Positions 1,554 through 64,000 of a stretch of 64,000 nt of DNA are shown piece by piece. The notes beneath the pieces were generated by a model. It ran no database searches, had not been told where the DNA came from, and saw only the letters and a program-made list of their open reading frames with translations. The DNA is from a bacterium (lineage in GTDB: Bacteria; Patescibacteriota; Minisyncoccia; UBA6257; JAGOQP01), in contig JAKANP010000001.1 of assembly GCA_021812345.1 (NCBI GenBank), forward strand, positions 54,979 to 118,978. The letters are read 5' to 3'. The stretch's first letter is position 1. Every line of letters starts with the position of its first letter. The translations under genes were made by a program, and so were the position numbers.

Positions 1554-1958
1554 ATGCGACTTAACGAATTAAAACCAAAAACAAATAGGGATAAAATAAA
1601 ACGAATCGGAAGAGGGGGTAAAAGAGGAACTTATTCCGGGAGAGGTCAAAAAGGACAAAAAGCAAGAGCCGGAAGAAATATTCGTCCCGGATTAAGAGAT
1701 ATTATCATTCGCACCCCTAAATTAAGAGGGTTTAAAAACAAACCCAAATCATTAAAAATGATTGCGGTTAGTTTGAGCAAGATAGATAAAATGTCGGAGC
1801 AGGAAATCAATGTTGAAGTTTTGAAAAAATACGGAATAAAGTATCCGGTAAAAATTGTCGGAAATGAAAAAATGCAGTCCGCTAAAAATATATCGGGTAT
1901 AAAAATTTCTTCTTCGGCTAAAAAAATAATTGAATCTGCCGGAGGGAGCGTTAAATAA
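1554..1958 (+). CDS. rplO: 50S ribosomal protein L15 (immediately after S5, no L30 gene between)
   Basis: MRLNELKPKTNRDKIKRIGRGGKRGTYSGRGQKGQKARAG is the L15 N-terminus. It starts 4 nt after the rpsE stop. Confidence 0.9.
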   Translation: MRLNELKPKTNRDKIKRIGRGGKRGTYSGRGQKGQKARAGRNIRPGLRDIIIRTPKLRGFKNKPKSLKMIAVSLSKIDKMSEQEINVEVLKKYGIKYPVKIVGNEKMQSAKNISGIKISSSAKKIIESAGGSVK

Positions 1959-1962
1959 AGCA

Positions 1963-3234
1963 ATGTCAAAAATAGCCCAACTTTTTAAGATAAAAGATTT
2001 GAGATTCCGCATTTTGATAGTTTCGATGTGGCTGGTTGTTTTTAGAATCTTAGCCGCTATTCCGATTCCTGACGTTGATATAACCAGATTAAAAAACTTT
2101 TTTGAAAATAATCAGTTGTTTGGTTTTTTAAATGTCTTTTCCGGAGGCGGACTTTCCAATCTTTCGGTTGCCATGTTGGCTGTCGGCCCTTACATAACCG
2201 CCACAATCATCATGCAACTTTTGACAATGATCTTTCCTCGATTAAAAGAGATCTACTACGAAGAGGGAGCTTTGGGGAGGGCTAAATTTAATCGTATTTC
2301 AAAATACATAACCGTTCCTTTGGCTTTTTTGCAAGGATACGGATTTTTAAATTTATTGGCTTCTCAGGGAGTTATTGGTCATCTTGGCGCTTTACAGCTT
2401 TTTCAGGAATCTTTAATCATCACTGCCGGTTCTATGGTTTTGACTTGGATAGGAGATCTGATTACCGAACAAAATTTAGGCAATGGAATTTCATTGATAA
2501 TCTTTGCCGGTATTGTGAGCCGATTGCCAACCACTATTCAGCAAGCAATTGCCACTTTTGATATGTCTGTTTTGACCAGTTATTTGATGTTTGCCGTTTT
2601 GGCGGTTGTAGTTATCGCCGGAGTTGTTTTTGTTAATGAAGGAGAGAGAAAAGTTTCAATAACTTATGCTAAAAGAGTAAGGGGAAACAAAGTTTACGGG
2701 GGAGCCACCAGCTACCTGCCGCTGAGAGTCAATCAGGCGGGAGTTATTCCGATTATTTTTGCCATTTCAGTTTTACTTTTCCCTCAATTTTTTGCTCAGG
2801 CATCGGCTATATTTTCCAAAAATTTTTCACTGGAAGCAACCAATTTTGTAAACAATATATTTAATAATCAATATATTTACGCCGCCATTTATTTTGTTTT
2901 GGTTGTTTTGTTTACTTATTTTTACACCGCAGTTACTTTTGACCCCAAAGAAATATCGAAGAACTTGCAAAACTCGGGAGGATTTATTTTAGGTATAAGA
3001 CCCGGAGAATCAACTTCCGCCTATCTTTCTAAAATTATAAATAGAATTACATTATGGGGAGCTATTTTCTTGGGAGTTCTGGCTATATTGCCGAACATTA
3101 CCAGAATAGTTACCGGCATAACAATATTTTCTCTTGGAGGAACAGCGCTTTTAATCGTCGTTTCTGTCGCTATTGAAGTTCTAAGACAGGTCAACTCTCA
3201 ATTAGTGATGAGAGAATACGAAGGGTTTGAATAA
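1963..3234 (+). CDS. secY: preprotein translocase subunit SecY
   Basis: 10-TM protein with SecY motifs (GGGLSNLSVAMLAVGPYITATIIMQLL, NEGERKVSITYAKR). ATG at 1963 is chosen, 5 nt after the rplO stop. Confidence 0.92.
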   Translation: MSKIAQLFKIKDLRFRILIVSMWLVVFRILAAIPIPDVDITRLKNFFENNQLFGFLNVFSGGGLSNLSVAMLAVGPYITATIIMQLLTMIFPRLKEIYYEEGALGRAKFNRISKYITVPLAFLQGYGFLNLLASQGVIGHLGALQLFQESLIITAGSMVLTWIGDLITEQNLGNGISLIIFAGIVSRLPTTIQQAIATFDMSVLTSYLMFAVLAVVVIAGVVFVNEGERKVSITYAKRVRGNKVYGGATSYLPLRVNQAGVIPIIFAISVLLFPQFFAQASAIFSKNFSLEATNFVNNIFNNQYIYAAIYFVLVVLFTYFYTAVTFDPKEISKNLQNSGGFILGIRPGESTSAYLSKIINRITLWGAIFLGVLAILPNITRIVTGITIFSLGGTALLIVVSVAIEVLRQVNSQLVMREYEGFE

Positions 3235-3261
3235 AATTAAATATTTGAAAATAAATTTAAT

Positions 3262-3283
3262 ACCGGCGCTAGCCGGTTTTTTA
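3262..3283 (+). terminator. Rho-independent terminator after secY (hairpin accggcgctagccggt plus T-run)
   Basis: A perfect 6-bp GC-rich inverted repeat with a 4-nt loop is followed by TTTTTT. Confidence 0.45.
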
Positions 3284-3342
3284 TCGCAATATTAAATCAA
3301 AATTTAATGCCATCGTTATTGATTGTGTTGTTTTTAAATAAA

Positions 3343-3383
3343 TTGACGAATTTTTTGGATTTAATTTGAATTTAGTGTAAAAT
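3343..3383 (+). promoter_or_regulatory. Possible sigma70-like promoter for adk (TTGACG -35 and an extended -10 TGTAAAAT)
   Basis: TTGACG at 3343-3348 and TGnTAAAAT at 3376-3383. The second element ends about 7 nt before the adk ATG, so the mRNA could be leaderless. This rests on sequence resemblance only. Confidence 0.2.
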
Positions 3384-3389
3384 GTCTCT

Positions 3390-4103
3390 ATGTCTAATTT
3401 ACCATCAAATCAAAAAGTGGTCGTTGTCATGGGACCGCCCGGTTCGGGAAAAGGAACTCAAGCAAATCTTATAGCCGGGAAACTTAATCTTTACCATCTT
3501 GATACGGGAAAGTTTCTTGAGGAATTAGTCCATGACCCAAAACTTCAAAACAACCCGGAGGTTCAAAAGGAAAGAGAAAATTTTGACGGAGGAATTTTGG
3601 TAAGCCCAATTTTCTTTTTAAAATGGGTTACTGAAAAAATAAATGAATTATACAAAAATGGCGAAGGAATAATTTTCAGCGGATCGCCCAGGACTATGCT
3701 TGAAGGTTTTGGGGACGAGGGTCATAAGGGGCTTATGGATGTGTTGGAGCAAGATTATGGAAGAGAAAATATACTCATCTTTCTTCTTCAAATTCCTGAC
3801 GAGGAATCAATAAGAAGAAACAGTTCGAGATTGATTTGTTCGGTTTGCGGCAATGCGATGATAAGCGCTCTTAATTTGAATTTGCCTCAATGCCCGGTTT
3901 GTGGAGGAGCGTTTAGGAAAAGAACGCTGGACAAGTCGGATGTTATAAAAGTTCGTTTGGAAGAATATAGAAACAGAACATTTCCGGTTGTTGCGGAATT
4001 GGAAAAACGCGGGTTTGTGGTTAATAGAATCGACGGCACTCCGATGCCGTATAAAGTTTTTGAGAACATCACTTCAATTATCAATGATATTTTTAAAAAG
4101 TAA
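3390..4103 (+). CDS. adk: adenylate kinase with Cys4 zinc-lid
   Basis: GPPGSGKGTQ P-loop. LID with CSVCG...CPVCGG. Confidence 0.9.
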   Translation: MSNLPSNQKVVVVMGPPGSGKGTQANLIAGKLNLYHLDTGKFLEELVHDPKLQNNPEVQKERENFDGGILVSPIFFLKWVTEKINELYKNGEGIIFSGSPRTMLEGFGDEGHKGLMDVLEQDYGRENILIFLLQIPDEESIRRNSSRLICSVCGNAMISALNLNLPQCPVCGGAFRKRTLDKSDVIKVRLEEYRNRTFPVVAELEKRGFVVNRIDGTPMPYKVFENITSIINDIFKK

Positions 4104-4842
4104 GGAAGAAATAGAAATTTTGAAAGAATCGGGTAAAATTCTTTCATCGATATTAAAGACTTTAAAAAAGAAAGCGCTTGTTGGCGTCAACCTTCTTGAG
4201 CTTGAAGATTTATCGAGAAAAATGACAAAAGAGTTAGGGGCCAGGCCGTCGTTTTTGGGATATAAGCCGGATGGCGCCGACAGACCTTATCCGGCGGCTC
4301 TTTGTTTGTCTTTGAATGAAGTTATCGTTCATGGCGTTCCTAAAAATTACCAATTAAAATCGGGAGACATTCTAAAAATAGATATGGGAGTTGTTTATGA
4401 AGGAATGTATACGGATTCGGCTGTTACTGTCGGTATTGGCGAAGTTTCGTCTGTAGCAAAAAAACTTATGAATTCTACAAAAAAAGCTCTTGATGAAGCA
4501 ATTAAAATGGTAAAAATCGGAAGACATATAGGAGATATAGGATGTGTCGTAGAAAAAAGAGCGGATAAAGATGGTTTCGAGGTTATAAAAAATCTTACCG
4601 GACACGGAGTCGGTTATGAGGTTCATGAAGATCCGGTTATTTTAAATTTTGGGAGAAAAAACACCGGACCGGAGATAAAAGAAGGGATGGTTCTTGCCAT
4701 AGAGCCGATGTTCAGTATTTCAAGCGATCAGATTGTTCAAAACCAAGATGAGAGCTATTCATCCGCTGATGGGAGTTTGACCGCCCAATTTGAACACACT
4801 ATTGCGGTTACAAAAAATAAGATTATCGTTTTGACGGAGTAG
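4084..4842 (+). CDS. map: methionine aminopeptidase type I
   Basis: Pita-bread fold motifs (VIVHGVP, DIGCVV..GHGVG.EVHEDP, LAIEPM). The ATG at 4084 overlaps the adk 3' end by 20 nt and is preferred to the upstream alternative start in the ORF track. Confidence 0.87.
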   Translation: MIFLKSKEEIEILKESGKILSSILKTLKKKALVGVNLLELEDLSRKMTKELGARPSFLGYKPDGADRPYPAALCLSLNEVIVHGVPKNYQLKSGDILKIDMGVVYEGMYTDSAVTVGIGEVSSVAKKLMNSTKKALDEAIKMVKIGRHIGDIGCVVEKRADKDGFEVIKNLTGHGVGYEVHEDPVILNFGRKNTGPEIKEGMVLAIEPMFSISSDQIVQNQDESYSSADGSLTAQFEHTIAVTKNKIIVLTE

Positions 4843-15174: not shown

Positions 15175-15203
15175 AAACCCTTTTAAAAAGGGTTTTTATT
15201 TTG
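15175..15203. terminator. Bidirectional terminator between convergent genes
   Basis: aaaccctttt a aaaagggttt hairpin flanked by T-runs on both strands. Confidence 0.4.
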
Positions 15204-16755
15204 GCTCAAGATATAAAACAACGGCATTTTTATCGTTGATTTCTTTTTCTTGAGATGGAAGTAAATAATAAATATTTTTCTCTTTTTGTTTTTCTTGAGT
15301 AAAGGTGTCGGTTATAAACATAATTGTTTCTGCCGGCATCGGTATTCCGTTCACCAAAACTCCATCGGCATTAACAATTACATATTTTTTGATGCTTTGC
15401 GGCATTTGATTCAGTTGATTGCCAAGCTGAACATAGTTTTCACTGAAAGCGTTGGCAACGTTGGGATTTTGCGCCCAAAAAATAAAATAGCTCGCATAAG
15501 ATTGAAAGATCAAAAATACTCCCACAATAATCAGAGTTGCGTAAAAAATTTTTTCTTGAGAACATTTCTTTTGAAAATAATTTATAAAAGCCAGAGCGCC
15601 CAATCCGGCAAGCATATATGACGGGGGAATCATAAGGATTGAACGTAAAGCGTGCGGAATTGATTCGTTTGAAAATACGACCGGCAACATTGCCATAAAC
15701 ATCCAAAATATCAATATCCACCAAAAAAATTCAAATTCTTTATTTTTTTCCGATTCCTCGCTTTCATCTTGTTTTTCGCTTAAATTAATAGCAGACGATT
15801 TGATTTTAGGAATCAATGAAAATATTCCGATTATAAAAAATATTCCGACAAACCAATATATTTCCGGGGATCCGGAAATATTGTGCCTCCAATTTGAATC
15901 TCCCTTAAAATCGAACATTCCCAAAGTTTTTATTATATTGGATGATAAATCCTTTAATGGAGATGCGGACGAAGTGATGGATATTTCGGACGTTCTTCCA
16001 AAAAAGTCTCCCGGATTTTTTATAAAATATATTCCCAAAGGAGAAAATACAATCAATGAAGCTATAACGTAAAAAGCAAAACTTGTAAAAATTTTTTTAA
16101 AATCTATTTTATAAATCCATTTATACAGCAAATAAATAAATATGATCAGAATCGGAGTGGCTCTGTAGGCGATATAAGAATACATTCCCAGTCCATAAAT
16201 GCTTCCTCCCAAAACACTCATTAAAATTATTTTTTTGTAATTTATTTTCTGTTCTTTTAATAATTCAAGCGATAAAATCAGTAAATAAATTCCCCACACC
16301 AATATTGCCGGCGCCATTATCGCTCTAAATCCCATTCTTGAAAAATCAACATGCCAAAAACTGATGGCGGTAAAAAACGAAGACAAAAAAGCCACCAAAT
16401 GGGAATATTTTCTTTTTCTGAAGATGTATTGAGTTAAAAGATAAATTCCTAAAATTGTTATCACTCCCCAAAAAGCGCTCTCGCTTCGCAACACCCAAGG
16501 AGCATGAACTTTAAAAATATATAACAAAAATGACTGAATATTGATAAATAATCCTTCCCGCCCGTTATTTTCAGGATAAAAAACTTTGTAATCTCCCGTG
16601 GATAGAGCTTGTGAGGCATTATTTCCGTTGATTGCTTCATCGGGATAGAGTCCCGGCGGAGTAATCGATAAATTGTAGAATCTAAAAAAGATTGCTATAA
16701 TTAAAACCGTAATAAGCCCATATTTTCTGAAGAAAGAATAAAATTTTTCGTTCAT
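15196..16755 (-). CDS. GT-C fold membrane glycosyltransferase (ArnT/PMT_2-like)
   Basis: 519-aa polytopic protein. The first periplasmic loop has YPDEAINGNNA and NNGREGLF motifs typical of ArnT/PMT_2 family transferases. Confidence 0.7.
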   Translation of the reverse strand: MNEKFYSFFRKYGLITVLIIAIFFRFYNLSITPPGLYPDEAINGNNASQALSTGDYKVFYPENNGREGLFINIQSFLLYIFKVHAPWVLRSESAFWGVITILGIYLLTQYIFRKRKYSHLVAFLSSFFTAISFWHVDFSRMGFRAIMAPAILVWGIYLLILSLELLKEQKINYKKIILMSVLGGSIYGLGMYSYIAYRATPILIIFIYLLYKWIYKIDFKKIFTSFAFYVIASLIVFSPLGIYFIKNPGDFFGRTSEISITSSASPLKDLSSNIIKTLGMFDFKGDSNWRHNISGSPEIYWFVGIFFIIGIFSLIPKIKSSAINLSEKQDESEESEKNKEFEFFWWILIFWMFMAMLPVVFSNESIPHALRSILMIPPSYMLAGLGALAFINYFQKKCSQEKIFYATLIIVGVFLIFQSYASYFIFWAQNPNVANAFSENYVQLGNQLNQMPQSIKKYVIVNADGVLVNGIPMPAETIMFITDTFTQEKQKEKNIYYLLPSQEKEINDKNAVVLYLEPK

Positions 16756-16780: not shown

Positions 16781-17176
16781 ATGGATTCAAATATTGTTCA
16801 TAATATCAATTATCACGAGTTGGCTCAAGAAGTTAATGTTAAAAAAGAAGCCTCTCCCGAATTGTCGCATAAAGAAATAGTATCGAATGTTTTGGAAAAA
16901 AGCGGAATGCCTCCGATGTCTCAGCCAATTACGCCCGCTCCTTCGGTAACTCAATCTTCAAACAAAAACGATGATTCAATTTTGCCGGATTATGCGAAGA
17001 AATCCGATCCGGGTATTCAAAATAAAATTCAACATTTGGTGTCTTTAACTTTGGAAAAGGGATTGAAAGAGGGAATTAATTTTGCAAAAAAAGAGGATCC
17101 ATTTGTCATGGACGCCTATCACGATTCTCTTTCGGATGTTTTGGTTGATGAAATGAAAAAAAGAAAACTTATATAA
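16781..17176 (+). CDS. hypothetical protein, translationally coupled to the downstream ATPase
   Basis: Its stop overlaps the start of the next gene at 17176. No recognisable domain. Confidence 0.4.
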   Translation: MDSNIVHNINYHELAQEVNVKKEASPELSHKEIVSNVLEKSGMPPMSQPITPAPSVTQSSNKNDDSILPDYAKKSDPGIQNKIQHLVSLTLEKGLKEGINFAKKEDPFVMDAYHDSLSDVLVDEMKKRKLI

Positions 17177-19539
17177 TGCAAAGCGTTATTATCACTTTAA
17201 TTATTGTTGTGAGTTTGGCCTCGTTTTTGGGCATAATTTGGTATGTTCTTTTAAAACAACAGAGGGAAAAAATAAAAAAATCTTTAAATTTAAAATTGTT
17301 AACAATCAAAATGCCCCGTCCGGATTTAACGGATTCCAGAGAGCATAATTTCAAAGAAGAAATAAATTTTTCGGAACAGCTTTTCAGTTCTCTTGCCTCG
17401 CTCAAGGAGATGACTGCTTTTGAAGTTGCAGTCCATCATGTCGGCGAGGAAATATTTTTTTATGTGGCGGTTCCTGAAAAAATGGTTTCTTTTATCAGTC
17501 GTCAGATAGAAGGAATTTTTAAGGACTCTCAAGTAACGGCTTCTCCCGAATATAATATTTTTCAACCGGGAGGATTTAACGCCGGATTTTATTTAAAACA
17601 AGACGCTCATTATTCGTTGCCGTTAAGAACTTATCTTGAATCCGAAGCCGATACTTTTTCTCCAATAGTCAGCGGACTTTCTAAAATTAATGAAATTGGT
17701 GAAGGCGCCGTTATCCAAGTTTTAATAAAATCCGCCCCGGAAAGTTATAAGAAAGGCATAGTTTCAATAATAAATTCTTTAAAAAAGGGAGAGAGTTTCA
17801 AAAAAATTGCCTCCACTAAAGCCATCGATTTAAAAGGTTGGGCTGATGTTTTAAAAGATAAAAAACCTGAAGATGATAAAAAACCTTCCATTATCGATGA
17901 AGAATCAATAAAATCGCTTGAAAGAAAAATTTCAAAACCTCTTTTTAAAGTTAATTATCGCGTATTGGTTTCTGCCATCAATCAATTTCAAACGGAGAAT
18001 ATTTTAGACGGTATTGCCGGGTCATTTAATCAATTTGAAGCGCCATTAAAAAATAAATTTAAAATAAATAAAGTAAAAAATTTCCAAAAATTCGCTTATC
18101 AGTTTTCTTTCAGAGATTTTGACGATTCTCAAGCGATGATTTTAAACACCGAAGAGATGGCCGGAATTTTTCACATGCCTTCGTCTTCCACATTATCTCC
18201 AAAGATCAAATGGATAAAATCAAAAGAATCTCCTCCGCCCTCAGAACTTCCCGATAACGGAACTTTGATTGGCCAAAGCAATTTTAGAGGGGAAGTAAAA
18301 CCGGTTTACATAACCGAAAGTGACAGACGCAGACACGTTTATTCTATCGGTCAAACCGGTGTCGGTAAAACAACATTGATGGTGGATATGATTTGGGATG
18401 ATATAAAAAAAGGCAAAGGAGCTTGTTATATTGACCCTCACGGAGATGCCATTGAAACTATTTTAGGATTGATTCCTAAAGAAAGGATGGACGATGTCAT
18501 TGTTTTTGATCCGGGATACACAAAAAAACCTATAGGATTGAACATGCTTGAATACAATTTTGATCATCCCGAAGAAAAAACTTTTATTGTTAACGAAATT
18601 CAGGGAATTTTTAATCGATTGTTTTTAGCTGAAACCATGGGCCCGATGTTTGAACAATATATGCGCAATTCGCTTTTATTGCTGATGGAAGATGCCGTCA
18701 ACGAGCCGGCTACATTTATTGATGTCCCGAGAGTTTTAACCGACGAAGAATTTCGTATTAAAAAATTATCAAGAATTACCAATCCGGTGGTTATAGATTT
18801 TTGGACAAAGGAGGCGAGCAAAGTCGGAGGTGAAGCGTCTTTGGCGAATATGGCTCCGTATATTACTTCCAAATTTAATAATTTTATTGCCAATGATTAT
18901 TTGAGGCCGATTATCGGACAAGCTAAATCGTCTTTTAATTTCAGGCAAATAATGGATGAGAAAAAAATTCTTTTGGTTAATTTATCCAAAGGAAAGATAG
19001 GAGATATCAATGCCGGACTTCTTGGAATGATAATCACGGGAAAATTGCTTATGGCGGCGCTTTCTCGGGTGGATATGGCCGAATCGGAAAGAAATGATTT
19101 TTATCTTCACATCGACGAGTTTCAAAACTTTACCACCGATTCCATTTCCACTATTTTATCGGAAGCCAGAAAGTATCGTCTTAACTTGAATATAACCCAT
19201 CAATTTATTGCTCAGCTTGAAGAAAAAATAAGAGATTCTGTTTTTGGAAACGTCGGTTCTATGGTTGTTTTCAGAGTTGGCGCTCAGGATGCGGAATTTT
19301 TAATCAAGCAATTTGAACCCGTGTTTACGCAATCGGATTTGATGAATATAGACAACTTTAATGCTTACGCCAAAATTTTGATTAACAATCAAACGTCCAA
19401 GCCGTTTAATATGAAAACGGTAATGTATCCCAAGCCGGATGTTGAGCTGGCTCAAAAAATAAAAGAGCTTTCTTTCTTAAAATACGGAAAAGACAGAGTG
19501 GAAGTAGAAAAAGAAATTATGGAAAAACTGAGAAGTTGA
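17176..19539 (+). CDS. membrane-anchored P-loop ATPase of the FtsK/HerA/VirD4(TraG)-like type (T4 coupling-protein-like)
   Basis: N-terminal TM. Walker A SIGQTGVGKTT, Walker B FYLHIDEFQNF. The C-terminal RKYRLNLNITHQFIAQLEEKIRDSVFGNVGSMVVFRVG resembles the TraG/TraD C-terminal motif. Confidence 0.6.
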   Translation: MQSVIITLIIVVSLASFLGIIWYVLLKQQREKIKKSLNLKLLTIKMPRPDLTDSREHNFKEEINFSEQLFSSLASLKEMTAFEVAVHHVGEEIFFYVAVPEKMVSFISRQIEGIFKDSQVTASPEYNIFQPGGFNAGFYLKQDAHYSLPLRTYLESEADTFSPIVSGLSKINEIGEGAVIQVLIKSAPESYKKGIVSIINSLKKGESFKKIASTKAIDLKGWADVLKDKKPEDDKKPSIIDEESIKSLERKISKPLFKVNYRVLVSAINQFQTENILDGIAGSFNQFEAPLKNKFKINKVKNFQKFAYQFSFRDFDDSQAMILNTEEMAGIFHMPSSSTLSPKIKWIKSKESPPPSELPDNGTLIGQSNFRGEVKPVYITESDRRRHVYSIGQTGVGKTTLMVDMIWDDIKKGKGACYIDPHGDAIETILGLIPKERMDDVIVFDPGYTKKPIGLNMLEYNFDHPEEKTFIVNEIQGIFNRLFLAETMGPMFEQYMRNSLLLLMEDAVNEPATFIDVPRVLTDEEFRIKKLSRITNPVVIDFWTKEASKVGGEASLANMAPYITSKFNNFIANDYLRPIIGQAKSSFNFRQIMDEKKILLVNLSKGKIGDINAGLLGMIITGKLLMAALSRVDMAESERNDFYLHIDEFQNFTTDSISTILSEARKYRLNLNITHQFIAQLEEKIRDSVFGNVGSMVVFRVGAQDAEFLIKQFEPVFTQSDLMNIDNFNAYAKILINNQTSKPFNMKTVMYPKPDVELAQKIKELSFLKYGKDRVEVEKEIMEKLRS

Positions 19540-19582: not shown

Positions 19583-19655
19583 GCCACCTTAGCTCAGCTG
19601 GTAGAGCAGCGCTTTCGTAAAGCGAAGATCCGCGGTTCAAATCCGCGAGGTGGCT
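19583..19655 (+). tRNA. tRNA-Thr (anticodon CGU)
   Basis: 73-nt cloverleaf: acceptor GCCACCU/AGGUGGC, D-arm GCUC/GAGC, anticodon loop UUCGUAA, T-arm CGCGG-UUCAAAU-CCGCG. There is one G.A mismatch at the top of the anticodon stem. Confidence 0.8.
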
Positions 19656-19663
19656 CAAAACCT

Positions 19664-20747
19664 ATGATTCAAAAAGAGTATGAATTAAAAATTAACGAGC
19701 TTCTTCAACGCCTCCAACAGCTAGGAGGCTGGCTTTGACGTAGAATCAAAACAAAACAGAATGAAAGAAATCCAGGCTCTTATGCAAGATTCTGATTTTT
19801 GGAAAAACAAAAATTCCGCCGATGAAACAATAAAAGAAATGGGCGACATCCAAAATGTTTTGGATAAATATCTTAAAGCTCAAAAAATGGTTGAAGAACT
19901 TGTAAAAAACAGCGAAGAAATAAACGAGGACGAATATTATAAAACGGAAAAAATAATAAAAGAACTTGAAATAAAAAAATTATTCAAAAACGAGTTTGAT
20001 TCCGGAAATGCCATAGTTTCTATTTATGCCGGCGCCGGGGGACAGGACGCGGCCGATTGGGTTCACATGCTTTATCTGATGTATGAAAAATATTCTCAAA
20101 AAAAAGATTGGAAAATATCGGTAATCGATTCCGCTCAAGAATCGGGAGAAGCAAGAACTGGAAGGACTTCGTTAAAAAATATAACTTTTGAAATAAAAGG
20201 GAATTATGCTTACGGCTATTTAAAAAAAGAGAGCGGCGTTCATCGTTTAGTGAGAGTTTCTCCTTTTTCGGCTCAAGGGCTAAGGCACACTTCGTTTGCT
20301 TTGGTTGAAGTTTTACCTGAAATAAAAGAAAGTTCTTTAAAAATAAATCCGGCTGATTTGAAAGTTGAATTTTATCGCTCTTCCGGACCCGGAGGACAAA
20401 ATGTAAATAAAGTTGAAACAGCCGTAAGAATAGTTCACTTGCCTACGGGACTTTCCGCGTCGTCTCAAGTGGAGCGCTCTCAATCACAAAACAGGGACAA
20501 GGCTATGAAAATTTTGGAAGCCAAGCTTATTCAATTGATGGAAAAAGAAAGAGTCAAAGAAATTGAAAAAATAAAAACAAAGGTCAAGCCGGAATGGGGA
20601 AGTCAGATAAGGTCTTATGTCTTAAATCCCTACAAACTTGTTAAAGACCATCGCACCGAACATGAAACAACTCAAATTGACAAGGTGATTGAAGGAGGAG
20701 ATTTGGACGGATTCATAGAATCGGAATTGACTGCCGATAATATCTGA
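19664..20747 (+). CDS. prfB: peptide chain release factor 2 with programmed +1 frameshift
   Basis: Frame 0 runs ATG 19664 to CTT 19733-19735 (MIQKEYELKINELLQRLQQLGGWL), then an in-frame UGA at 19736-19738. An AGGAGG SD-like element lies 4 nt upstream of CUU UGA C. The +1 frame continues DVESKQNRMKEIQALMQDSDFW... with SPF and GGQ motifs, in frame from 19737 to 20747. Confidence 0.88.
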
Positions 20748-23302: not shown

Positions 23303-24277
23303 ATGAACAAAAAAATTAATATTTTATTTTTATCGCTCTTTGCCTTGATCGGAGTTGTTTTTGTAATTCCTCATTCCGTGTTAGCTGATGGACCGGAGTT
23401 TTTACCTCCTGCATGTGGACAATACGATGGAAATCAACGTACTTGTAGTTTTTATACGGTTAGTCGTGATATGAATATAACTCCCGAACTTACAAACTCA
23501 TTTGTGTTTGTAACTCATTTGAGAAATAAAGATATGATAGGATATGTAGATCAAAGTCTAACAAATGCGGACTATAAGTTGCAGAATTTTGTCTCAACGA
23601 CAGGGATTATTGATGAAGCAGTTGATAAAAATTATTTTAATGAAAATGGCGGAATAAATAATCTTTTTACAAAAACAGATATTATAAAAGTAGCAGCGTC
23701 TTCTTCGTGTCCGAGTGGATATCAAATAATCGACGTTCCCATAGACCAGAATGGAAATAGTACATGCGCCAAAGAAGCAGCTCCAAAACCAGAGACAAAA
23801 AAACATATGTTTAGTATATGGGTAGTAGCAACAGATAAATACGATTCTCCTTCCGCTAAACCCGGAAATTTGGTGCCTTGGAATCAGGGAGACCACATTG
23901 ATCCATTTGTTCAGACAACTTTAGGTAATCCAATTACTATAAAAATATTAAGATACAGTCCTCTGGGAATTTTGAATAATAAAATAATTTTTTATCGCTC
24001 TCAAGAAATTTATTATATTAATCAAGGAACCGAAAAAACCATCTCCAGACAAACAAACTTATCGGCACCTACCGTTCAAGGGATCAAACCATTTTCGGCG
24101 GCACAAACAAATGTTGTAACAAATATCCAGGCAAATACAACTACCACAACTGTTTCTGCTACAACTAGTCAAAATGACAACAAGCCGGTTACCGTCAATT
24201 CTCCATCTTTAATTGGTTATATAAAATCTTTTTTCTCCGGATTTGGTAATCTTGTGCGAATACTTTTCCGCTTCTAA
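23303..24277 (+). CDS. secreted hypothetical protein (signal peptide, Cys pairs, C-terminal hydrophobic tail)
   Basis: N-terminal MNKKINILFLSLFALIGVVFVIPHSVLA signal-like segment. No catalytic motif recognised. Confidence 0.5.
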   Translation: MNKKINILFLSLFALIGVVFVIPHSVLADGPEFLPPACGQYDGNQRTCSFYTVSRDMNITPELTNSFVFVTHLRNKDMIGYVDQSLTNADYKLQNFVSTTGIIDEAVDKNYFNENGGINNLFTKTDIIKVAASSSCPSGYQIIDVPIDQNGNSTCAKEAAPKPETKKHMFSIWVVATDKYDSPSAKPGNLVPWNQGDHIDPFVQTTLGNPITIKILRYSPLGILNNKIIFYRSQEIYYINQGTEKTISRQTNLSAPTVQGIKPFSAAQTNVVTNIQANTTTTTVSATTSQNDNKPVTVNSPSLIGYIKSFFSGFGNLVRILFRF

Positions 24278-50918: not shown

Positions 50919-51980
50919 TCAGGCTTTAGCCGGGTTTGTAACGTGAGAATCGGATGTGATGTTAAGCCATCTTTCGATAGCCATCGATACGGTTATCCCG
51001 ACGAGACTTCCCGTGATGGTGAACGTGATGTAAGGAGTCAACAGCATCAAAGACATTTGTTCGCGAGTAAGATATCTGAACGTCAAATACCAAATTCCAT
51101 TACTGAAAACGGAAGCAATTGCGTGATAAATAAAGTTATTTCTGCTTCTGGCCCGACTGATGAGAGCAAAACTGATATTCTGAGAAATTGCCAAAATCAT
51201 CAGAATGTAAGCTTGGTCGATGGTTTTGGATATAACCGCAAACAAAATACCGATCGTTGCCAATATTGATGCCGGAACCAGCGGAGAAACAGAATCCTTA
51301 TTTTTCAGATGAGAGTCGGCGGAAGTTCCCACCAATCTTTCGATGGTCATGGAAACTTTCTGCCCCGACATTCCTCCAAGAATCGATCCGAAAAGATACG
51401 GCGGGAAAAGGTCAAACGTCAATTTCGCCATAATTAACTCTCTCCACATAAAATACCACAGAACTCCGTCAACAATCGATATCAATGCATGATAAGTGGC
51501 ATTATTTGTGTTGCGTGAACGTCTTACAGCCGTAAAGCCGGCATCCTTCATGAAAGCCAGCGCCGCCAGCGTCATCAATGCCAAAGCGCTTTTTCTGGCA
51601 AGAATTATTGACAGAAGAATCAAAATTCCCATCATCACCAAAAGAAATACCTGAGCCATCTTTGGAGTTGAAGTATTCTTGTTTGGCTTGGTTGTTATAT
51701 TGAACAACTTTTCGATCTTCATTGAAAGCGCGGCTCCGCTTACGCTTCCAAAAACAGTAGCTACGGTGTATGGAACCCACAAAATCAAAGTCATGTTTTT
51801 ACTGACCAACATTTTTAATGTGGAAAAGAAGACAAGATTTGAAAGCAACATAGTAAAGGCGTAGTAAATAAAACTGTTTCTATTTCCCGCCCTGCTGGTT
51901 AACGAATAACAGGTATTCTGTATGTATGCCATTAAAACCAACAGCAAAACGAAAGACAGCGAAAGTGTCATCTTGTCCAT
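50919..51980 (-). CDS. polytopic membrane protein built from three internal repeats (each with S-R-x3-RN-x2-[FIY]-Y ... PY ... GS..G...SM.IE[RK][LW] motifs)
   Basis: Repeats are visible by eye around residues 20-95, 140-235 and 260-353 (LTSRAGNRNSFIYY / AVRRSRNTNNATYH / LISRARSRNNFIYH, and SMKIEKLFNITT / SMTIERLVGTS / SMAIERWLNITS). GC is elevated (~45%). Confidence 0.55.
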   Translation of the reverse strand: MDKMTLSLSFVLLLVLMAYIQNTCYSLTSRAGNRNSFIYYAFTMLLSNLVFFSTLKMLVSKNMTLILWVPYTVATVFGSVSGAALSMKIEKLFNITTKPNKNTSTPKMAQVFLLVMMGILILLSIILARKSALALMTLAALAFMKDAGFTAVRRSRNTNNATYHALISIVDGVLWYFMWRELIMAKLTFDLFPPYLFGSILGGMSGQKVSMTIERLVGTSADSHLKNKDSVSPLVPASILATIGILFAVISKTIDQAYILMILAISQNISFALISRARSRNNFIYHAIASVFSNGIWYLTFRYLTREQMSLMLLTPYITFTITGSLVGITVSMAIERWLNITSDSHVTNPAKA

Positions 51981-52112: not shown

Positions 52113-54920
52113 TTATGCCGGATTAGGCAGGAATGATTCCCAATCCAATTTGGCATTTTCCTTAATAAATTTATGAATTTGATCGGCGGGAAGCACACGG
52201 ACAAGAATTGGCGCACTTTGAGGTCCCTCTGCCGGAAGTCCCACAAATGAGACTCCGGAACTGTTAGGAGGAAATCCAAGTTCACCGTACTGATCGGTAT
52301 GAACATCGGCTCCCGAGCTGTGATAAATCGCGTATCCGGTAATTACTGTTCCCGTAAAATGTTTGTCGCCAACCGTTTTCAAGGTTATGCGATGATTCAT
52401 AATTCTATTGTAATTACCGCGACGAATATCATTGCGAACCATATTAAGCAATGTGTCGCCCCAATTTACACCTTGACCGGTAGGAGTATCTCGAAAATCG
52501 ATGCCGTATTCATATCCATCCGGAATTTGGAACGTTCCCCACGCAATGTATTGATTTCCAAAGAGAGGAGATTTAATCGAATGCTCGATCCATTCCGGAT
52601 GATTTGCCCAATGAGAAAGAGCAAGCAACTTAGCCTTAAGGATCCGGGCATAAATGAACCCTTCCGTTATCGTTTTGTCGGTTGTCTTAAGAATATGATT
52701 TCCGGTTCCATCGCTGATAATACCAACGTCGCGACGGTCGAAATCGGTTCCATTAAAATCACTGATTCCCTTGACAATGAGTCCGGACTTTTTAGCCCGA
52801 CGCAAAACAGCATCAAAAAATTCAACACCTTCCAAAACAAGAGAATCGATAGCTTCCTCAATTTGATCTTGAGCCCAATGAATTCCTCTGTACCAAAGTT
52901 GTGTTAACATAAACCTTCGCGCTTTTTCAAAATAAAAACGCAACTTATCCGGATCACTTTCATTCATCGCTCTATCACTCATATCCATAAGCTTTTTCTG
53001 AATTTGAGTGTAATTCATAGCGCGCGGATCCGGTTGTTTGTGGTTCTCATAATGATGTCCGTGGACGCCATCGTCATTCATGGTAACGCTATGAATTGGC
53101 ATAGCATCATTTTCAAAAAGACCGTCACGTTCCATCATCTTAAAACTTGCTTCAGTAATACCGACAACTTTCCCGTTGGGCATACTGATTATTTCCCGCG
53201 AAGGAGAACCAATATGAGTATCGGTAATTTCTTCAACCCATATATATTTCGGTTTGGGAACCGTGATTCCTCTTGCTTTGCTTTCCTTAATTCGTATTGA
53301 TGTTTTTTGAAGAGACTCAGTAGACCAGACAACCGGTTGGAATTTTCCATCAACCATTTTAAGTGTCAAAACTCCACTTTCAAATTGCTCGTTAAGCATA
53401 GAATTCGAAAGCTTGTGAACTTTCCTGATGGTGTCGCGAAGAGTTCCTCTGATAAAACGCTTATCAATCGCAATCGGCGCGACAAATACCTGAGCCGAAC
53501 CTCGTTTTCCGTCCGCATCCACTTGGCGTTCCGTAGAACGATAGTTGACGGCAAAAGGATGGCAAATAACAACATTATCCGCCATGCGTTCACGAAGAAC
53601 CTTCGGACCGTAAGAATTGCAGTAATTAGCCAACAACTCGTCACTCGGATCGTCGTTTCTGGGAATATTAATCTCAATACTTTGGCCGTTGTTTCTCGCA
53701 AAAGTGCTTCCGATGCCGATAACCTTGGAATTCGGAATAGTTTCTTCGATTCTCTTGATCACGAAGCGCATTACTTTGTAGTAATAACGCTTATGTTCTT
53801 GAGATGCTATGTTTGACGCCGCAGTGCGAGCCAGTTCATTCGAAACAGATTCCAAATTTTTTCTCAACTCATCGGCTAGAGAATGATCTTTTTTGTTGAT
53901 TGCGTGAGCAATTTGAATTTCCAACAAACGCTTTTGAACGTTCAATTCGTTTTGAATCCGTCTCATAAAATACAACTCTTCCCAATAAGCGCCGGCGGCA
54001 ATAATTTCTTCATCTCTGTAACCAAGAACAACCAATATCTGTCCGTTGAACGTCGGGTTCTTTTTGGTGCCGACAATCTTGGACCAACCTCTCATGCTTT
54101 CGGTGAACAATTCCGCGGTTGTCTGAAACATTATCTCGTCATGCGGTTGTTTTTCGATGATTCTTTTTGCCTTTTCGGCATAATCACGATCGAGATCGTC
54201 AGGATTGACATTGCGTCCGGAAAGAAGAGCTCGAAGAACCTTAATCGGTCCGGCTGCTTTCTTGGTATCGATATCAAGAATGTTGGTCAAAATTATCGCG
54301 GAATGCTTATAATAGCAAGCAATTTCAAGCGGTTGGCGCGCAGGATTCTCGGATATTACGCTGCTGTAAGGAATTCCCAAATTGACTCCGTTAAGAAATG
54401 TGATAGCGGCAGGGCTATCGTCATTGTCTGAACGAATTTCAAACGGTTTGATAAATGTTCCGGTTTCGAAATGCAACGGTTCCCCGCTCATTTCGGAAAT
54501 TTCTTCGCCTAGTCGCAAGATGCCCTTAACAAATCCGGTAGAAGATGAATCTTTCCGTCCGATTGTATTGCCGTGCAGTTGATTCCACTTTCTTACAAAT
54601 AATTCATAAGGAATATATGAAACGGCAGAATAAACTTTATTCATTTCCAATCGATGACGAACGGCAATTTTAATTTCCGCAAGAACCTTGAAAGTCCATA
54701 TCAATTCGATAATCTTACGTTGAAAATTGCGTTTATTAAAATTATATTCCGGCTTTTTCAGATGTTCAGCAAATTCTTCCTTAATTGCCTCGTACAAATA
54801 GTCGATGCCTTTGTCTTTTAACGTGCCGTCATAAATTAATTTTTCGATTCGATCAATAAGTCCGGAAATTTTCCAAGTATCTTTCTTCTTCCTTGCGGAA
54901 ACTTCCTTCTTGGAGCTCAT
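52113..54920 (-). CDS. large (935 aa) two-part protein: unknown N-terminal ~550-aa region plus C-terminal calcineurin-like metallophosphoesterase domain
   Basis: Metallophosphatase motif I (WVEEITDTHIGSP, D-x-H), probable motif II (NDDGVHG), motif III (ISDGTGNHIL, GNH), and downstream His-containing motifs. No P-loop. GC is about 45% against ~35% background. Confidence 0.6.
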   Translation of the reverse strand: MSSKKEVSARKKKDTWKISGLIDRIEKLIYDGTLKDKGIDYLYEAIKEEFAEHLKKPEYNFNKRNFQRKIIELIWTFKVLAEIKIAVRHRLEMNKVYSAVSYIPYELFVRKWNQLHGNTIGRKDSSSTGFVKGILRLGEEISEMSGEPLHFETGTFIKPFEIRSDNDDSPAAITFLNGVNLGIPYSSVISENPARQPLEIACYYKHSAIILTNILDIDTKKAAGPIKVLRALLSGRNVNPDDLDRDYAEKAKRIIEKQPHDEIMFQTTAELFTESMRGWSKIVGTKKNPTFNGQILVVLGYRDEEIIAAGAYWEELYFMRRIQNELNVQKRLLEIQIAHAINKKDHSLADELRKNLESVSNELARTAASNIASQEHKRYYYKVMRFVIKRIEETIPNSKVIGIGSTFARNNGQSIEINIPRNDDPSDELLANYCNSYGPKVLRERMADNVVICHPFAVNYRSTERQVDADGKRGSAQVFVAPIAIDKRFIRGTLRDTIRKVHKLSNSMLNEQFESGVLTLKMVDGKFQPVVWSTESLQKTSIRIKESKARGITVPKPKYIWVEEITDTHIGSPSREIISMPNGKVVGITEASFKMMERDGLFENDAMPIHSVTMNDDGVHGHHYENHKQPDPRAMNYTQIQKKLMDMSDRAMNESDPDKLRFYFEKARRFMLTQLWYRGIHWAQDQIEEAIDSLVLEGVEFFDAVLRRAKKSGLIVKGISDFNGTDFDRRDVGIISDGTGNHILKTTDKTITEGFIYARILKAKLLALSHWANHPEWIEHSIKSPLFGNQYIAWGTFQIPDGYEYGIDFRDTPTGQGVNWGDTLLNMVRNDIRRGNYNRIMNHRITLKTVGDKHFTGTVITGYAIYHSSGADVHTDQYGELGFPPNSSGVSFVGLPAEGPQSAPILVRVLPADQIHKFIKENAKLDWESFLPNPA

Positions 54921-61626: not shown

Positions 61627-64000
61627 TTATCTTGGAATTATTTCACGAAGAACAGGAATAAATCCGACATTGACAGTGGTCTGAGTATCGGTAACGGTCG
61701 GAGCTCCATCACAAGAAAGGTTATATTGAGTAGTAGCAATTGGTTTCACTCTGAATGTTCCGGATTCGGTTCCTGTGGCAACCATGCTATTATCCGAAAC
61801 TTTGGTAATTGCACAATTTCTTGAAACTCCGGTTGGGTCACAAGACCAAGATAAAATGGAAGATTGTCCGGTTAAAATTGACGAAGAAGAAGCGGTGAAA
61901 GTACAGGAAGCGGGAGTCAATGACTGGCAAGTAGCGCTATAAACACTGTTGTCATTTTGGGCACATCTATAAATATCGGCGTACACTGATTTTCCAAAAT
62001 ATTGACCCCACTGGCTATCCAAAGTACTACACATTATTTCCGGTTCATTTTTTAATAATTGACCGGGCTGTGGAACTTGGACGTAATCGGTTTCTCCATT
62101 ACTTGATGTATTTCTGGAACCGGACCAACCAACTATAACAGAAGACCCCCTTGATGTTGTAGTAGCATAACAATTAGTTACATTATTCACTGACCAAGAT
62201 AATACTATCGGATATGTTGAAAATTGATAGTTATATGGAACTATAAGAGGATCTATCGATACGTCAGTCCATTTATATTTAGGTGGAGGAGATAATACTT
62301 TTATATAACTACCTCCAAAACCTGTAGAAAAGCCGTTATTTTGAGTTGTAGACCACACCGTCGCCGGATTGAGACCATCCGCTACAGCCATCCACCCATT
62401 AGGCCTATTTGTAACGCCAGTTCCATTAATGTTGAGTAAGCACGAAGTCGTGTTATTATTTTTATCACTCACTCCTATATTTAGATGACAGCCGTTAACC
62501 GAATCACCACAAGTATATGTTGGTGTGCTATTGTATCCATAACAAGTCATGTCAGCTATAGCGCCTGGCCAGTTATAACATCTATAAGGAGACGTCCCTC
62601 CGGTAATTCCTACCGAAACTTGAGTTGGAGCGCTACTTGATGGATTTGCCGTAAGATTGCAGGAAAAACCTCCCGGAGGTGGCGGAGTTGAGCTTACTAT
62701 ATCTATATCCGCATTTGCCGAATGATTTAATGTTCCGCTCACTCCTGTAACTGTGAATGTGTATCTTTCAATTACTGCAGCACTTGAGACATTTAACGTA
62801 AGATTGGAAGTTCCGCTTGTTGAAATTGTTTGAGGAGAAGGAGTTCCTGTTGTGCCGCTGTGAAGACCGGATATTGATAAAGCTACATTTCCGGTAAACC
62901 CCCCGCTTGGGGTTACTGATATTGTATATGATGCTGAACCTGGCTTTGTAGTAGAAGCATAATTCGGAGAAATAGAAATTAAAAAGTCTGGAATTCCCGG
63001 AGGATTAGTTACGTTAAGAATGGCTGTAGCATTGATACTATTATAAGTAGAATTAATTCCTGCAGTTCCTGATTTTTTTCCCAAATAGAGTCCACTTCCT
63101 TGAGATGAAGCAATTGATGAATCGGGAGCGTTAACCGCCCAAGAAGCAAATTGATTAACTTTAAAATTTCCATATCTTATATCCGTTCCATCCGGATCAT
63201 ATAATCCGTTGTATTGATATGTGCTACCAACGGTTGTTGTCGCGCTTGGAGGATCAATAACATAAGTCGGGGTATGACCTGGTGGTGGCGGAGGAGGAGA
63301 ATCACAATCGCCGGCATATGGAAATGGAGTTTTTACAGAAATAGTATTGGATGGGGAACTTTCTCCACTACTGTTCACGGAAGTCACATAATAATTATAG
63401 GTTGAATTAACATTTACATTTTGATCTATATACCAAGTATTGATTGTGTTGGCTATTTTTGATCCGTTTCTGTAAACATTATAATTTGAAGCGCCGGAAA
63501 CCGGGCTCCACCCTAAAATTGCTTGGACTGAAGCTGATGGATAGTTTTGATGACATTCACCGTTTGCAGCAAAATTCGTTGGAGATCCCGGGATACCACC
63601 TCCTATTGGTGCAAAATAGAGTTTTATTTCTTGTTCTAGCGGCGGAAGAGATGCGTTAGTTCTTACATTAGTTATCGAACCACTATTGCTACAATATTGA
63701 TATCCATTTGGAGGAACTACATTTTTACCAGTAACGGTAAATTTTGAAGGGTAATAAGAATCCCATGGTCCCCACGTAAAATCATTTGGTTTTTGAGGCG
63801 TGTTGCTTAATGAAGCTGTTGGGTAATCGGCAATGGTAGTTTGGGCGGGACCACTGGTGATTGTTACGTCAAATCTTACATTGGGATCATTAGGGCTCAT
63901 AGCCACAGCGCCCGCCAAAGGAGCGGAACAATTTGGTAAGGTGTAACCATTAAAATGGACTAAGTCGTGGAATTGACTAACGGATATTGTCTTTGTAGTT
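61627..64000 (-). CDS. very large S/T/N/G-rich surface protein with FN3-like repeats (5' end beyond window)
   Basis: The frame stays open upstream of the first start codon out to the window edge. FN3-like motif (WYIDQNVNVNSTYNYYVTSVNSSGESSP) and long low-complexity T/S/G/N tracts. Confidence 0.55.
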   Translation of the reverse strand, partial: TTKTISVSQFHDLVHFNGYTLPNCSAPLAGAVAMSPNDPNVRFDVTITSGPAQTTIADYPTASLSNTPQKPNDFTWGPWDSYYPSKFTVTGKNVVPPNGYQYCSNSGSITNVRTNASLPPLEQEIKLYFAPIGGGIPGSPTNFAANGECHQNYPSASVQAILGWSPVSGASNYNVYRNGSKIANTINTWYIDQNVNVNSTYNYYVTSVNSSGESSPSNTISVKTPFPYAGDCDSPPPPPPGHTPTYVIDPPSATTTVGSTYQYNGLYDPDGTDIRYGNFKVNQFASWAVNAPDSSIASSQGSGLYLGKKSGTAGINSTYNSINATAILNVTNPPGIPDFLISISPNYASTTKPGSASYTISVTPSGGFTGNVALSISGLHSGTTGTPSPQTISTSGTSNLTLNVSSAAVIERYTFTVTGVSGTLNHSANADIDIVSSTPPPPGGFSCNLTANPSSSAPTQVSVGITGGTSPYRCYNWPGAIADMTCYGYNSTPTYTCGDSVNGCHLNIGVSDKNNNTTSCLLNINGTGVTNRPNGWMAVADGLNPATVWSTTQNNGFSTGFGGSYIKVLSPPPKYKWTDVSIDPLIVPYNYQFSTYPIVLSWSVNNVTNCYATTTSRGSSVIVGWSGSRNTSSNGETDYVQVPQPGQLLKNEPEIMCSTLDSQWGQYFGKSVYADIYRCAQNDNSVYSATCQSLTPASCTFTASSSSILTGQSSILSWSCDPTGVSRNCAITKVSDNSMVATGTESGTFRVKPIATTQYNLSCDGAPTVTDTQTTVNVGFIPVLREIIPR

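Follow-up and report, generated by a model that had tools for sequence, protein, structure and literature searches.

The gene pair described here lies in a stretch of 64,000 nucleotides of a Patescibacteria genome (assembly GCA_021812345.1, contig JAKANP010000001.1, positions 54,979 to 118,978), hereafter referred to as the window, and consists of a small gene for a 131-aa protein (16781..17176, + strand) and a directly following gene for a 787-aa ATPase (17176..19539, + strand). According to sequence comparisons, the ATPase half of the larger protein belongs to the VirD4/TraG/TrwB clade of type IV coupling proteins (T4CPs); it is preceded by a domain, DUF8128, which by its fold is a VirB4-type N-terminal domain. 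With a probability of roughly 45 %, we propose this protein to be the trans-encoded coupling ATPase of a chromosomal, relaxase-less type IV secretion system (T4SS), in which the N-terminal domain, together with a transmembrane (TM) helix where present, would serve for docking and the small protein as an adaptor or regulator.

Both open reading frames (ORFs) are present where the original prediction, made from the DNA alone, had placed them, and the overlap that it had noted measures 1 nt. Reading the sequence directly, the last base of the TAA stop codon of the 131-aa ORF (17174-17176) is the first base of the ATG of the 787-aa ORF, and the resulting TAATG (17174..17178, + strand) is the arrangement expected of translationally coupled genes. 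The genes are considered real because more than 4,433 homologues of the 787-aa protein exist, the best 120 of which are all ca. 785 aa long and 59–92 % identical over the full length. These best 120 are assigned by name to Patescibacteria/Parcubacteria, and all of them carry precomputed matches to PF26449 (DUF8128) and to T4CP families.

Domain architecture of the ATPase

The 787-aa protein is composed, in this order, of one TM helix, the DUF8128 domain and a T4CP-clade ATPase domain with an all-α insertion (all coordinates on the + strand); its AlphaFold2 model has a mean predicted local distance difference test score (pLDDT) of 82.4. The TM helix (aa ~3–25; 17182..17250) is indicated by a hydropathy of 2.74 over aa 1–28 and by a modelled helix spanning residues 2–37. 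It is followed by a Lys/Arg-rich stretch, and the rest of the protein is therefore placed in the cytoplasm. The N-terminal domain with the VirB4-type fold comprises aa ~36–346 (17281..18213); the PF26449 match is precomputed for the exact window protein, and our local Pfam copy gave no PF26449 match for it.

The nucleotide-binding domain (NBD) of the FtsK/HerA superfamily extends over aa ~360–750 (18253..19425). Its Walker A motif GQTGVGKT (aa 392–399; 18349..18372) and the subsequent T4CP-typical IDPHGD (aa 419–424) are invariant in an alignment of 49 sequences with a mean column identity of 69 %, and align to GATGTGKS...VDPNGD of TrwB. Walker B (YLHIDEF, aa 643–649), EARK (aa 663–666) and THQ (aa 674–676), together at 19102..19203, are invariant or nearly so, and EARK occupies, by alignment, the position of the arginine in the GRK of TrwB. 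Judged from the sequence, all catalytic motifs of the ATPase are intact, including both Walker motifs that characterize NBDs of the FtsK/HerA superfamily. An all-α insertion between Walker A and Walker B (aa ~465–594; 18568..18957) is modelled as helices at the position of the all-α domain of TrwB, and the superposition onto TrwB covers 361 of 420 residues (TM-score 0.65). An N-terminal domain of the VirB4 type in front of a RecA-like C-terminal domain is at the same time the layout of VirB4. The fold left the C-terminal domain undecided between VirB4 and VirD4, and sequence controls were therefore used.

Affiliation of the ATPase half

The possibility that the protein is the VirB4 of a T4SS, i.e. 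its assembly or pilus ATPase, and not a coupling protein is suggested by this layout and the fold of the N-terminal domain, yet the sequence comparisons make it improbable. All Pfam and NCBIfam matches are to T4CP families: TrwB_AAD_bind (PF10412; 23.2 bits at a cut-off of 20.5) and DUF87 are marginal matches, and SXT_TraD and the CD1115 VirD4-like family reach 46.6 vs 366 bits and 29 vs 250 bits, respectively, far under their cut-offs. A PF03135/PF12846-type VirB4 match is absent from the window protein, and PF12846 was found in one of the 120 homologues. When the family profile was compared with the PDB sequences, TrwB (7.7e-7), DotL (1.4e-4) and HerA (7e-3) were matched, whereas no VirB4 was matched at E ≤ 10. 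The C-terminal half retrieved 401 plasmid records by tblastn with up to 34 % identity (E 6e-67), whose annotations name T4SS DNA-binding, DUF87 or TraM-recognition proteins. Aligned by hhalign, the C-domain profile matched plasmid coupling proteins of Embleya, Bradyrhizobium, Rhodococcus, Shouchella and Halorussus with E-values of 1e-25 to 1e-58, but the VirB4-like ATPases of the Embleya and Shouchella clusters with just 1.4e-5 and 7e-4; the matches to these VirB4-like paralogues are 20–50 orders of magnitude weaker than those to the T4CPs of conjugation clusters. In addition, the VirB4 proteins of Patescibacteria form a well-defined clade apart, encoded in a gene cluster of their own, as reported by Quinonero-Coronel et al. 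2025 (PMC12102498). Genes for VirB3, VirB6 or VirB8-type membrane proteins are absent from the neighbourhoods in the window and at 80 further loci (see below), and the small protein, soluble and devoid of a TM helix, does not resemble VirB3.

Because the profile, hhalign and plasmid-relative controls favour T4CPs over VirB4, the ATPase half is assigned to the coupling-protein clade. The VirD4/TraG-like ATPase with Walker A and B motifs of the original prediction is thereby borne out by the motifs, the PDB profile matches and the hhalign results, and its TraG/TraD-type C-terminal motif holds in part: TraG-D_C (PF12696) matches aa 643–706, at 21.9 bits marginally below the cut-off of 22.0.

The protein shares with T4CPs (VirD4/TrwB/TraD/TraG; PF02534, PF10412, PF12696) the NBD with its all-α insertion, Walker A...IDPxGD, Walker B, ARK and HQ. 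The likeness is strongest to the long T4CPs of monoderm and actinobacterial plasmids which are encoded beside replication-relaxation proteins (25–34 % identity to plasmid T4CPs). In Embleya the gene order is PrgI-family, XF1762-family, a 643-aa VirB4-like ATP-binding protein, the 812-aa T4CP, a replication-relaxation protein and NlpC/P60, and the 883-aa relative of Shouchella adjoins a replication-relaxation protein, conjugal-transfer genes and an 837-aa VirB4-like ATPase. The N-domain profile also matched the N-terminal region of the Shouchella T4CP (96 % probability, E 2.7e-9, 223 columns) and weakly but collinearly that of Embleya (E 0.007); no match was obtained in the Bradyrhizobium or Rhodococcus relatives. 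The window protein thus represents a long form of T4CP with a VirB4-like N-terminal domain, of which at least one conjugative plasmid of Bacillota also provides an example. The N-terminal TM domain of T4CPs typically comprises two helices and directly precedes the NBD. Here, a VirB4-type domain of ca. 310 aa separates the membrane anchor from the NBD, and one TM helix or none is found in the family. It further deviates from T4CPs by its chromosomal core gene, which never stands beside relaxase or mating-pair formation (Mpf) genes, and by its obligate small partner gene. From VirB4/TrwK/TraC it differs by the lack of sequence-level membership, of VirB3/VirB6/VirB8 neighbours and of a membrane-bound small partner.

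Two groups of relatives carry the ATPase half in other settings. The proteins of Bradyrhizobium (708 aa; L090:7044-9170) and Rhodococcus (738 aa; L092:8167-10383) have the ATPase half in common with the family and unrelated N-terminal regions. Since they are encoded among CHAT-domain, TPR and NYN-domain genes and not conjugation genes, other systems, possibly related to conflict, have probably recruited this T4CP-like ATPase. At locus L052, a 496-aa paralogue (L052:4384-5874) corresponds to the ATPase half alone and is located 3.7 kb upstream of the full-length gene, which is of the fused type; it matches the C-domain profile with E 1.4e-94, as well as Pfam T4SS-DNA_transf, TrwB_AAD_bind and DUF87. 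Such ATPase-half paralogues may be the source of the ca. two T4CP homologues per genome in the literature.

The small partner, gene fusion and the membrane anchor

The 131-aa protein is soluble and lacks a TM helix. It begins with a charged helix, continues with a linker of low complexity and ends with a helical module, which is its conserved part (...kG..A..va.k..p..lD.fHD.L...). Its 345 database homologues are all ca. 130–157 aa long; no Pfam domain was detected in them or in the protein itself, for which Pfam and NCBIfam returned noise. An unrestricted iterative profile of the small protein drifted into the ATPase, which brought the fusion to light, and a profile was then constructed from stand-alone upstream ORFs only. 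At 30 loci the latter matched the first ca. 120 residues of ATPase ORFs of 908–968 aa (E 1e-10 to 2e-4), and independent gene calls of 909–977 aa in a protein library display the same fused layout. The gene fusion is strong evidence for the small protein and the ATPase acting as one complex; the 131-aa protein is a dedicated cytoplasmic partner of the ATPase. The small upstream gene originally predicted is accordingly confirmed as a true coupled partner by both the overlap and the fusion in other lineages.

The two arrangements were counted over the window and the 80 other loci (81 sequences). The split form, with the small gene directly upstream on the same strand, was found in 36, including the window, and 35 of these have a TM helix in front of the N-domain. 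In the 30 fused sequences, with the small module at the N-terminus of the ATPase, no TM helix was present (0/30). The small gene was not detected at ten loci (TM helix in nine), and five are cut by a contig end (TM helix in four). On these counts, the membrane anchor and the fusion are mutually exclusive. The membrane anchor of the original prediction consequently applies to the window protein with its one TM helix and is no constant of the family.

Seven of the ten loci without a detected small gene carry in the coupled position another conserved small ORF of 150–194 aa with the motif IPGVNrFFLEQEAKIKTD (L043:9402-9917, L046:3701-4153, L056:472-948, L060:9363-9947, L074:9320-9868, L086:8165-8635 and L088:122-622). 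A homology of this second family to the 131-aa type was considered and rejected, the hhalign probability being 0.2 % and thus indicating no detectable homology. The remaining three loci comprise one long fused-like form and two with unrelated upstream genes.

Distribution and genomic context

Of the first 600 pattern matches in a scan of GTDB species genomes, at least 395 were confirmed as loci encoding the ATPase. The 80 species-level loci that were compared originate from Wolfe-, Vogel-, Nomura-, Taylor-, Zambryski-, Sung-, Uhr-, Morani- and Komeilibacteria, among others, and their proteins are 42–77 % identical. The N-terminal region alone (aa 31–360) retrieves 1,072 clusters at 50 % identity and, in full-length proteins, is always found at aa ~30–370 of proteins of ca. 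790–860 aa or at aa ~140–490 of proteins of ca. 910–930 aa. Several GTDB representative metagenome-assembled genomes among the loci (L010, L012, L014, L025, L028, L046 and others) bear titles such as ‘uncultured Candidatus Saccharibacteria’, ‘Bdellovibrionales’ or ‘Gammaproteobacteria’; they display Paceibacteria-like synteny and orthologues of 43–63 % identity, and the labels look unreliable.

Across the 80 loci the small gene is the sole universal neighbour of the ATPase gene. The synteny with ychF, a GT-C-like gene and prfB-ftsEX is kept in close relatives and gone below ca. 60 % identity, and on this ground a functional link to prfB-ftsEX, with a role in division, was rejected. In the fused-type lineages L052, L053, L057 and L059, the ATPase gene directly follows secY-adk-map and precedes ndk; in the window it is located ca. 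13 kb downstream of secY-adk-map (1930-4842) on the same strand. Annotation of practically all larger ORFs in the window and in the 10 kb beyond its start identified a housekeeping environment with ribosomal proteins, secY, adk, map, cdaA, greA, aspS, tyrS, ychF, prfB, ftsEX, dnaX, scpAB, dacA, mraY, ftsW, murG, gltX, def, fmt, sodA and obg. The GC content is uniform over the window, and that of the gene pair equals its surroundings. Housekeeping neighbours, secY-adk-map macro-synteny, uniform GC content and conservation together indicate that the pair belongs to the chromosomal core of Parcubacteria-type Patescibacteria and is inherited vertically, not as part of a mobile element.

No T4SS, type IV pilus, com, relaxase or integrase gene was found in the window or in the 10 kb beyond its start, and no VirB4-like ORF or relaxase/Mpf module within ±10 kb at any of the 80 loci. 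The predicted absence of other T4SS or conjugation genes from the window is therefore upheld by the ORF annotation. The description of the ATPase as solitary applies to the locus and not to the cell, as a T4SS of the VirB4 type is common elsewhere on the chromosome in Patescibacteria, according to PMC12102498. The homology to plasmid coupling proteins might suggest that a conjugative or mobilisable element once integrated here and left the gene behind. However, neither integrase, relaxase, replication nor Mpf genes lie nearby, and the GC content matches the surroundings. The conserved core-gene synteny across many lineages, with strong purifying selection in hundreds of species, effectively refutes this explanation.

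Relationships to an anti-phage defence ATPase of the HerA/DptH/MADS type or to an FtsK substitute for chromosome segregation were likewise considered. PADLOC reported only mad8 (4.5e-13, 47 bits) and HerA (2.4e-5), and HerA was also among the PDB sequences matched by the family profile, with less significance than TrwB and DotL. These similarities remain at the level of the superfamily, and a defence system was rejected on account of the weak, generic character of the PADLOC matches and the absence of partner genes nearby, such as a nuclease, Sir2 or Dnd. Compared to HerA, FtsK, DptH-C and TcpA, the family also lacks a HAS-barrel, in whose stead the N-domain is VirB4-like, and an FtsK gamma domain. 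The motor of E. coli FtsK gave no tblastn match in the window at 1e-5, nor in 1.45 Mb of candidate phyla radiation (CPR) DNA, a sample which covers only ca. 2–3 % of each genome and is uninformative. As the ftsEX adjacency is lost beyond close relatives and FtsK/SpoIIIE is reported in most Patescibacteria bins (PMC10469934), we regard both roles as very improbable.

Proposed function

In the proposed scenario, the gene pair encodes a two-part, presumably hexameric, coupling-protein-type ATPase which would act as the trans-encoded substrate receptor and motor of a monoderm-type (MPF-FATA-derived), relaxase-less T4SS encoded elsewhere in the genome. VirB4 docks with its N-terminal domain on VirB3/VirB8. 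In analogy, the VirB4-like N-domain of the family, supported by the TM helix where present, might dock the ring at the inner-membrane translocon. The small helical protein would then be a stoichiometric adaptor or regulator with a role comparable to that of CagZ for Cagβ or of IcmSW for DotL. Because relaxases are absent, proteins are more likely to be transported than conjugative DNA. The coupling reading is supported by the nearest non-CPR relatives, those of Embleya and Shouchella, which are located within real conjugation clusters.

The scenario is compatible with the published inventory of Patescibacteria, in which solitary T4CPs are known in outline: Quinonero-Coronel et al. 2025 (PMC12102498) report VirB4 in 2,417 of 3,035 genomes and 5,713 T4CP homologues in 2,918 of them, only 148 of which are near virB4. 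These distant homologues, found there by T4CP hidden Markov models, are almost certainly the same genes as those of the present family. The T4SS of Patescibacteria is described as MPF-FATA-like, chromosomal and mostly relaxase-less, with a cluster usually devoid of a T4CP (PMC12102498; PMC10633639), and according to Wang et al. 2023 (PMC10633639), neither a coupling protein nor a relaxase is recognisable in the essential T4SS cluster of S. epibionticum.

Several observations weigh against this assignment. The surroundings of the gene, in the window and within ±10 kb of the 80 loci, contain no T4SS gene; T4CP homologues occur in more genomes than VirB4 (2,918 vs 2,417 of 3,035; PMC12102498). 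The same source describes the t4cp homologue of S. epibionticum, which may or may not be of the DUF8128 type, as non-essential although its T4SS is essential. The complete lack of a TM helix in the fused-type orthologues is unusual for a channel-docked T4CP, and the conservation, far above that usual for conjugative T4CPs, would be compatible with a housekeeping function outside secretion as well. Finally, only the gene fusion speaks for the small protein as an adaptor.

Most of these points equally bear on the possibility that the ATPase has been exapted as a T4SS-independent core translocase which, together with its partner, performs a translocating or remodelling function of housekeeping character, for example by moving proteins at the membrane, or DNA or nucleoprotein in the course of uptake, segregation or repair. 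We consider such a role possible and nearly as likely as the coupling function. It would be in line with a gene that is always unlinked from virB4, both at the 80 loci and according to PMC12102498, with the excess of T4CP homologues over VirB4, the very high conservation in a housekeeping context, the TM-less fused forms and the non-essentiality of the homologue of S. epibionticum, next to its essential T4SS, and the authors of PMC12102498 themselves allow for an exaptation of T4CP homologues. However, genuine conjugative coupling proteins are the closest relatives outside the group, the search for neighbours gave the small gene as the sole universal one and no other system as a partner, and T4CP genes of ordinary systems are often located away from the Mpf genes as well (PMC12102498). 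As FtsK/SpoIIIE and ComEC are both reported in most Patescibacteria bins (PMC10469934), those roles are already filled. The originally suggested DNA uptake, in particular, received no direct support in this analysis.

A more specific and, in our view, rather unlikely version postulates a self-contained Parcubacteria machine independent of any T4SS, formed by a ‘missing-link’ ATPase between VirB4 and VirD4 that kept an ancestral VirB4-type N-domain and performs an essential housekeeping translocation. Such a machine would handle, for example, host-derived DNA, nucleoprotein or proteins at the membrane, and the split form with a TM helix and the fused soluble form would be two solutions for one complex.

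Returning to the coupling ATPase as the favoured assignment, the family is catalogued but uncharacterised, and no papers on DUF8128 were found. As far as it was read, PMC12102498 gives no description of the DUF8128/VirB4-like N-domain, of the small partner or of the dichotomy between split and fused, TM-containing and TM-less forms, and these features appear to be previously undescribed. In the sole genetically tractable species of Patescibacteria the T4SS is essential, yet its cluster lacks a recognisable coupling protein, for which the family is the obvious candidate. The VirB4-type docking domain, the dedicated small partner revealed by fusion and the mutual exclusivity of anchor and fusion now offer handles on this question. 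The combination of a coupling-clade ATPase with a VirB4-type N-domain, found in at least one Bacillota plasmid T4CP as well, also bears on the divergence of VirD4 and VirB4. Patescibacteria account for a large share of bacterial diversity; if the family does work without a T4SS, one of the major radiations of bacteria would possess a core machine not known before.

Neighbouring genes in the window

Divergently to the small gene, with 25 nt separating the two start codons, the − strand encodes a 519-aa multi-TM protein (15196-16755) with a GT-C/PMT-like N-terminus (..PPGLYPDEAINGNNA..), for which neither Pfam nor PADLOC gave a match. As its adjacency is kept in only 19 of the 81 sequences, this neighbour is taken as lineage synteny. 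Four further ORFs of the window had no meaningful Pfam match, namely 52113-54920 (−, 935 aa), 50919-51980 (−, 353 aa), 61627-63918 (−, 763 aa) and 23303-24277 (+, 324 aa); they may code for lineage-specific surface or host-interaction proteins. Downstream of the ATPase gene, a tRNA-Thr gene (19583-19656) precedes prfB (19664-20747), which contains the canonical +1 programmed frameshift: its ORF0 (MIQKEYELKINELLQRLQQLGGWL, then the stop codon) ends at a Shine-Dalgarno-like AGGAGG with CTT TGA C behind it (~19722-19740); the +1 frame (DVESKQNRMKEIQ...) runs on to 20747.

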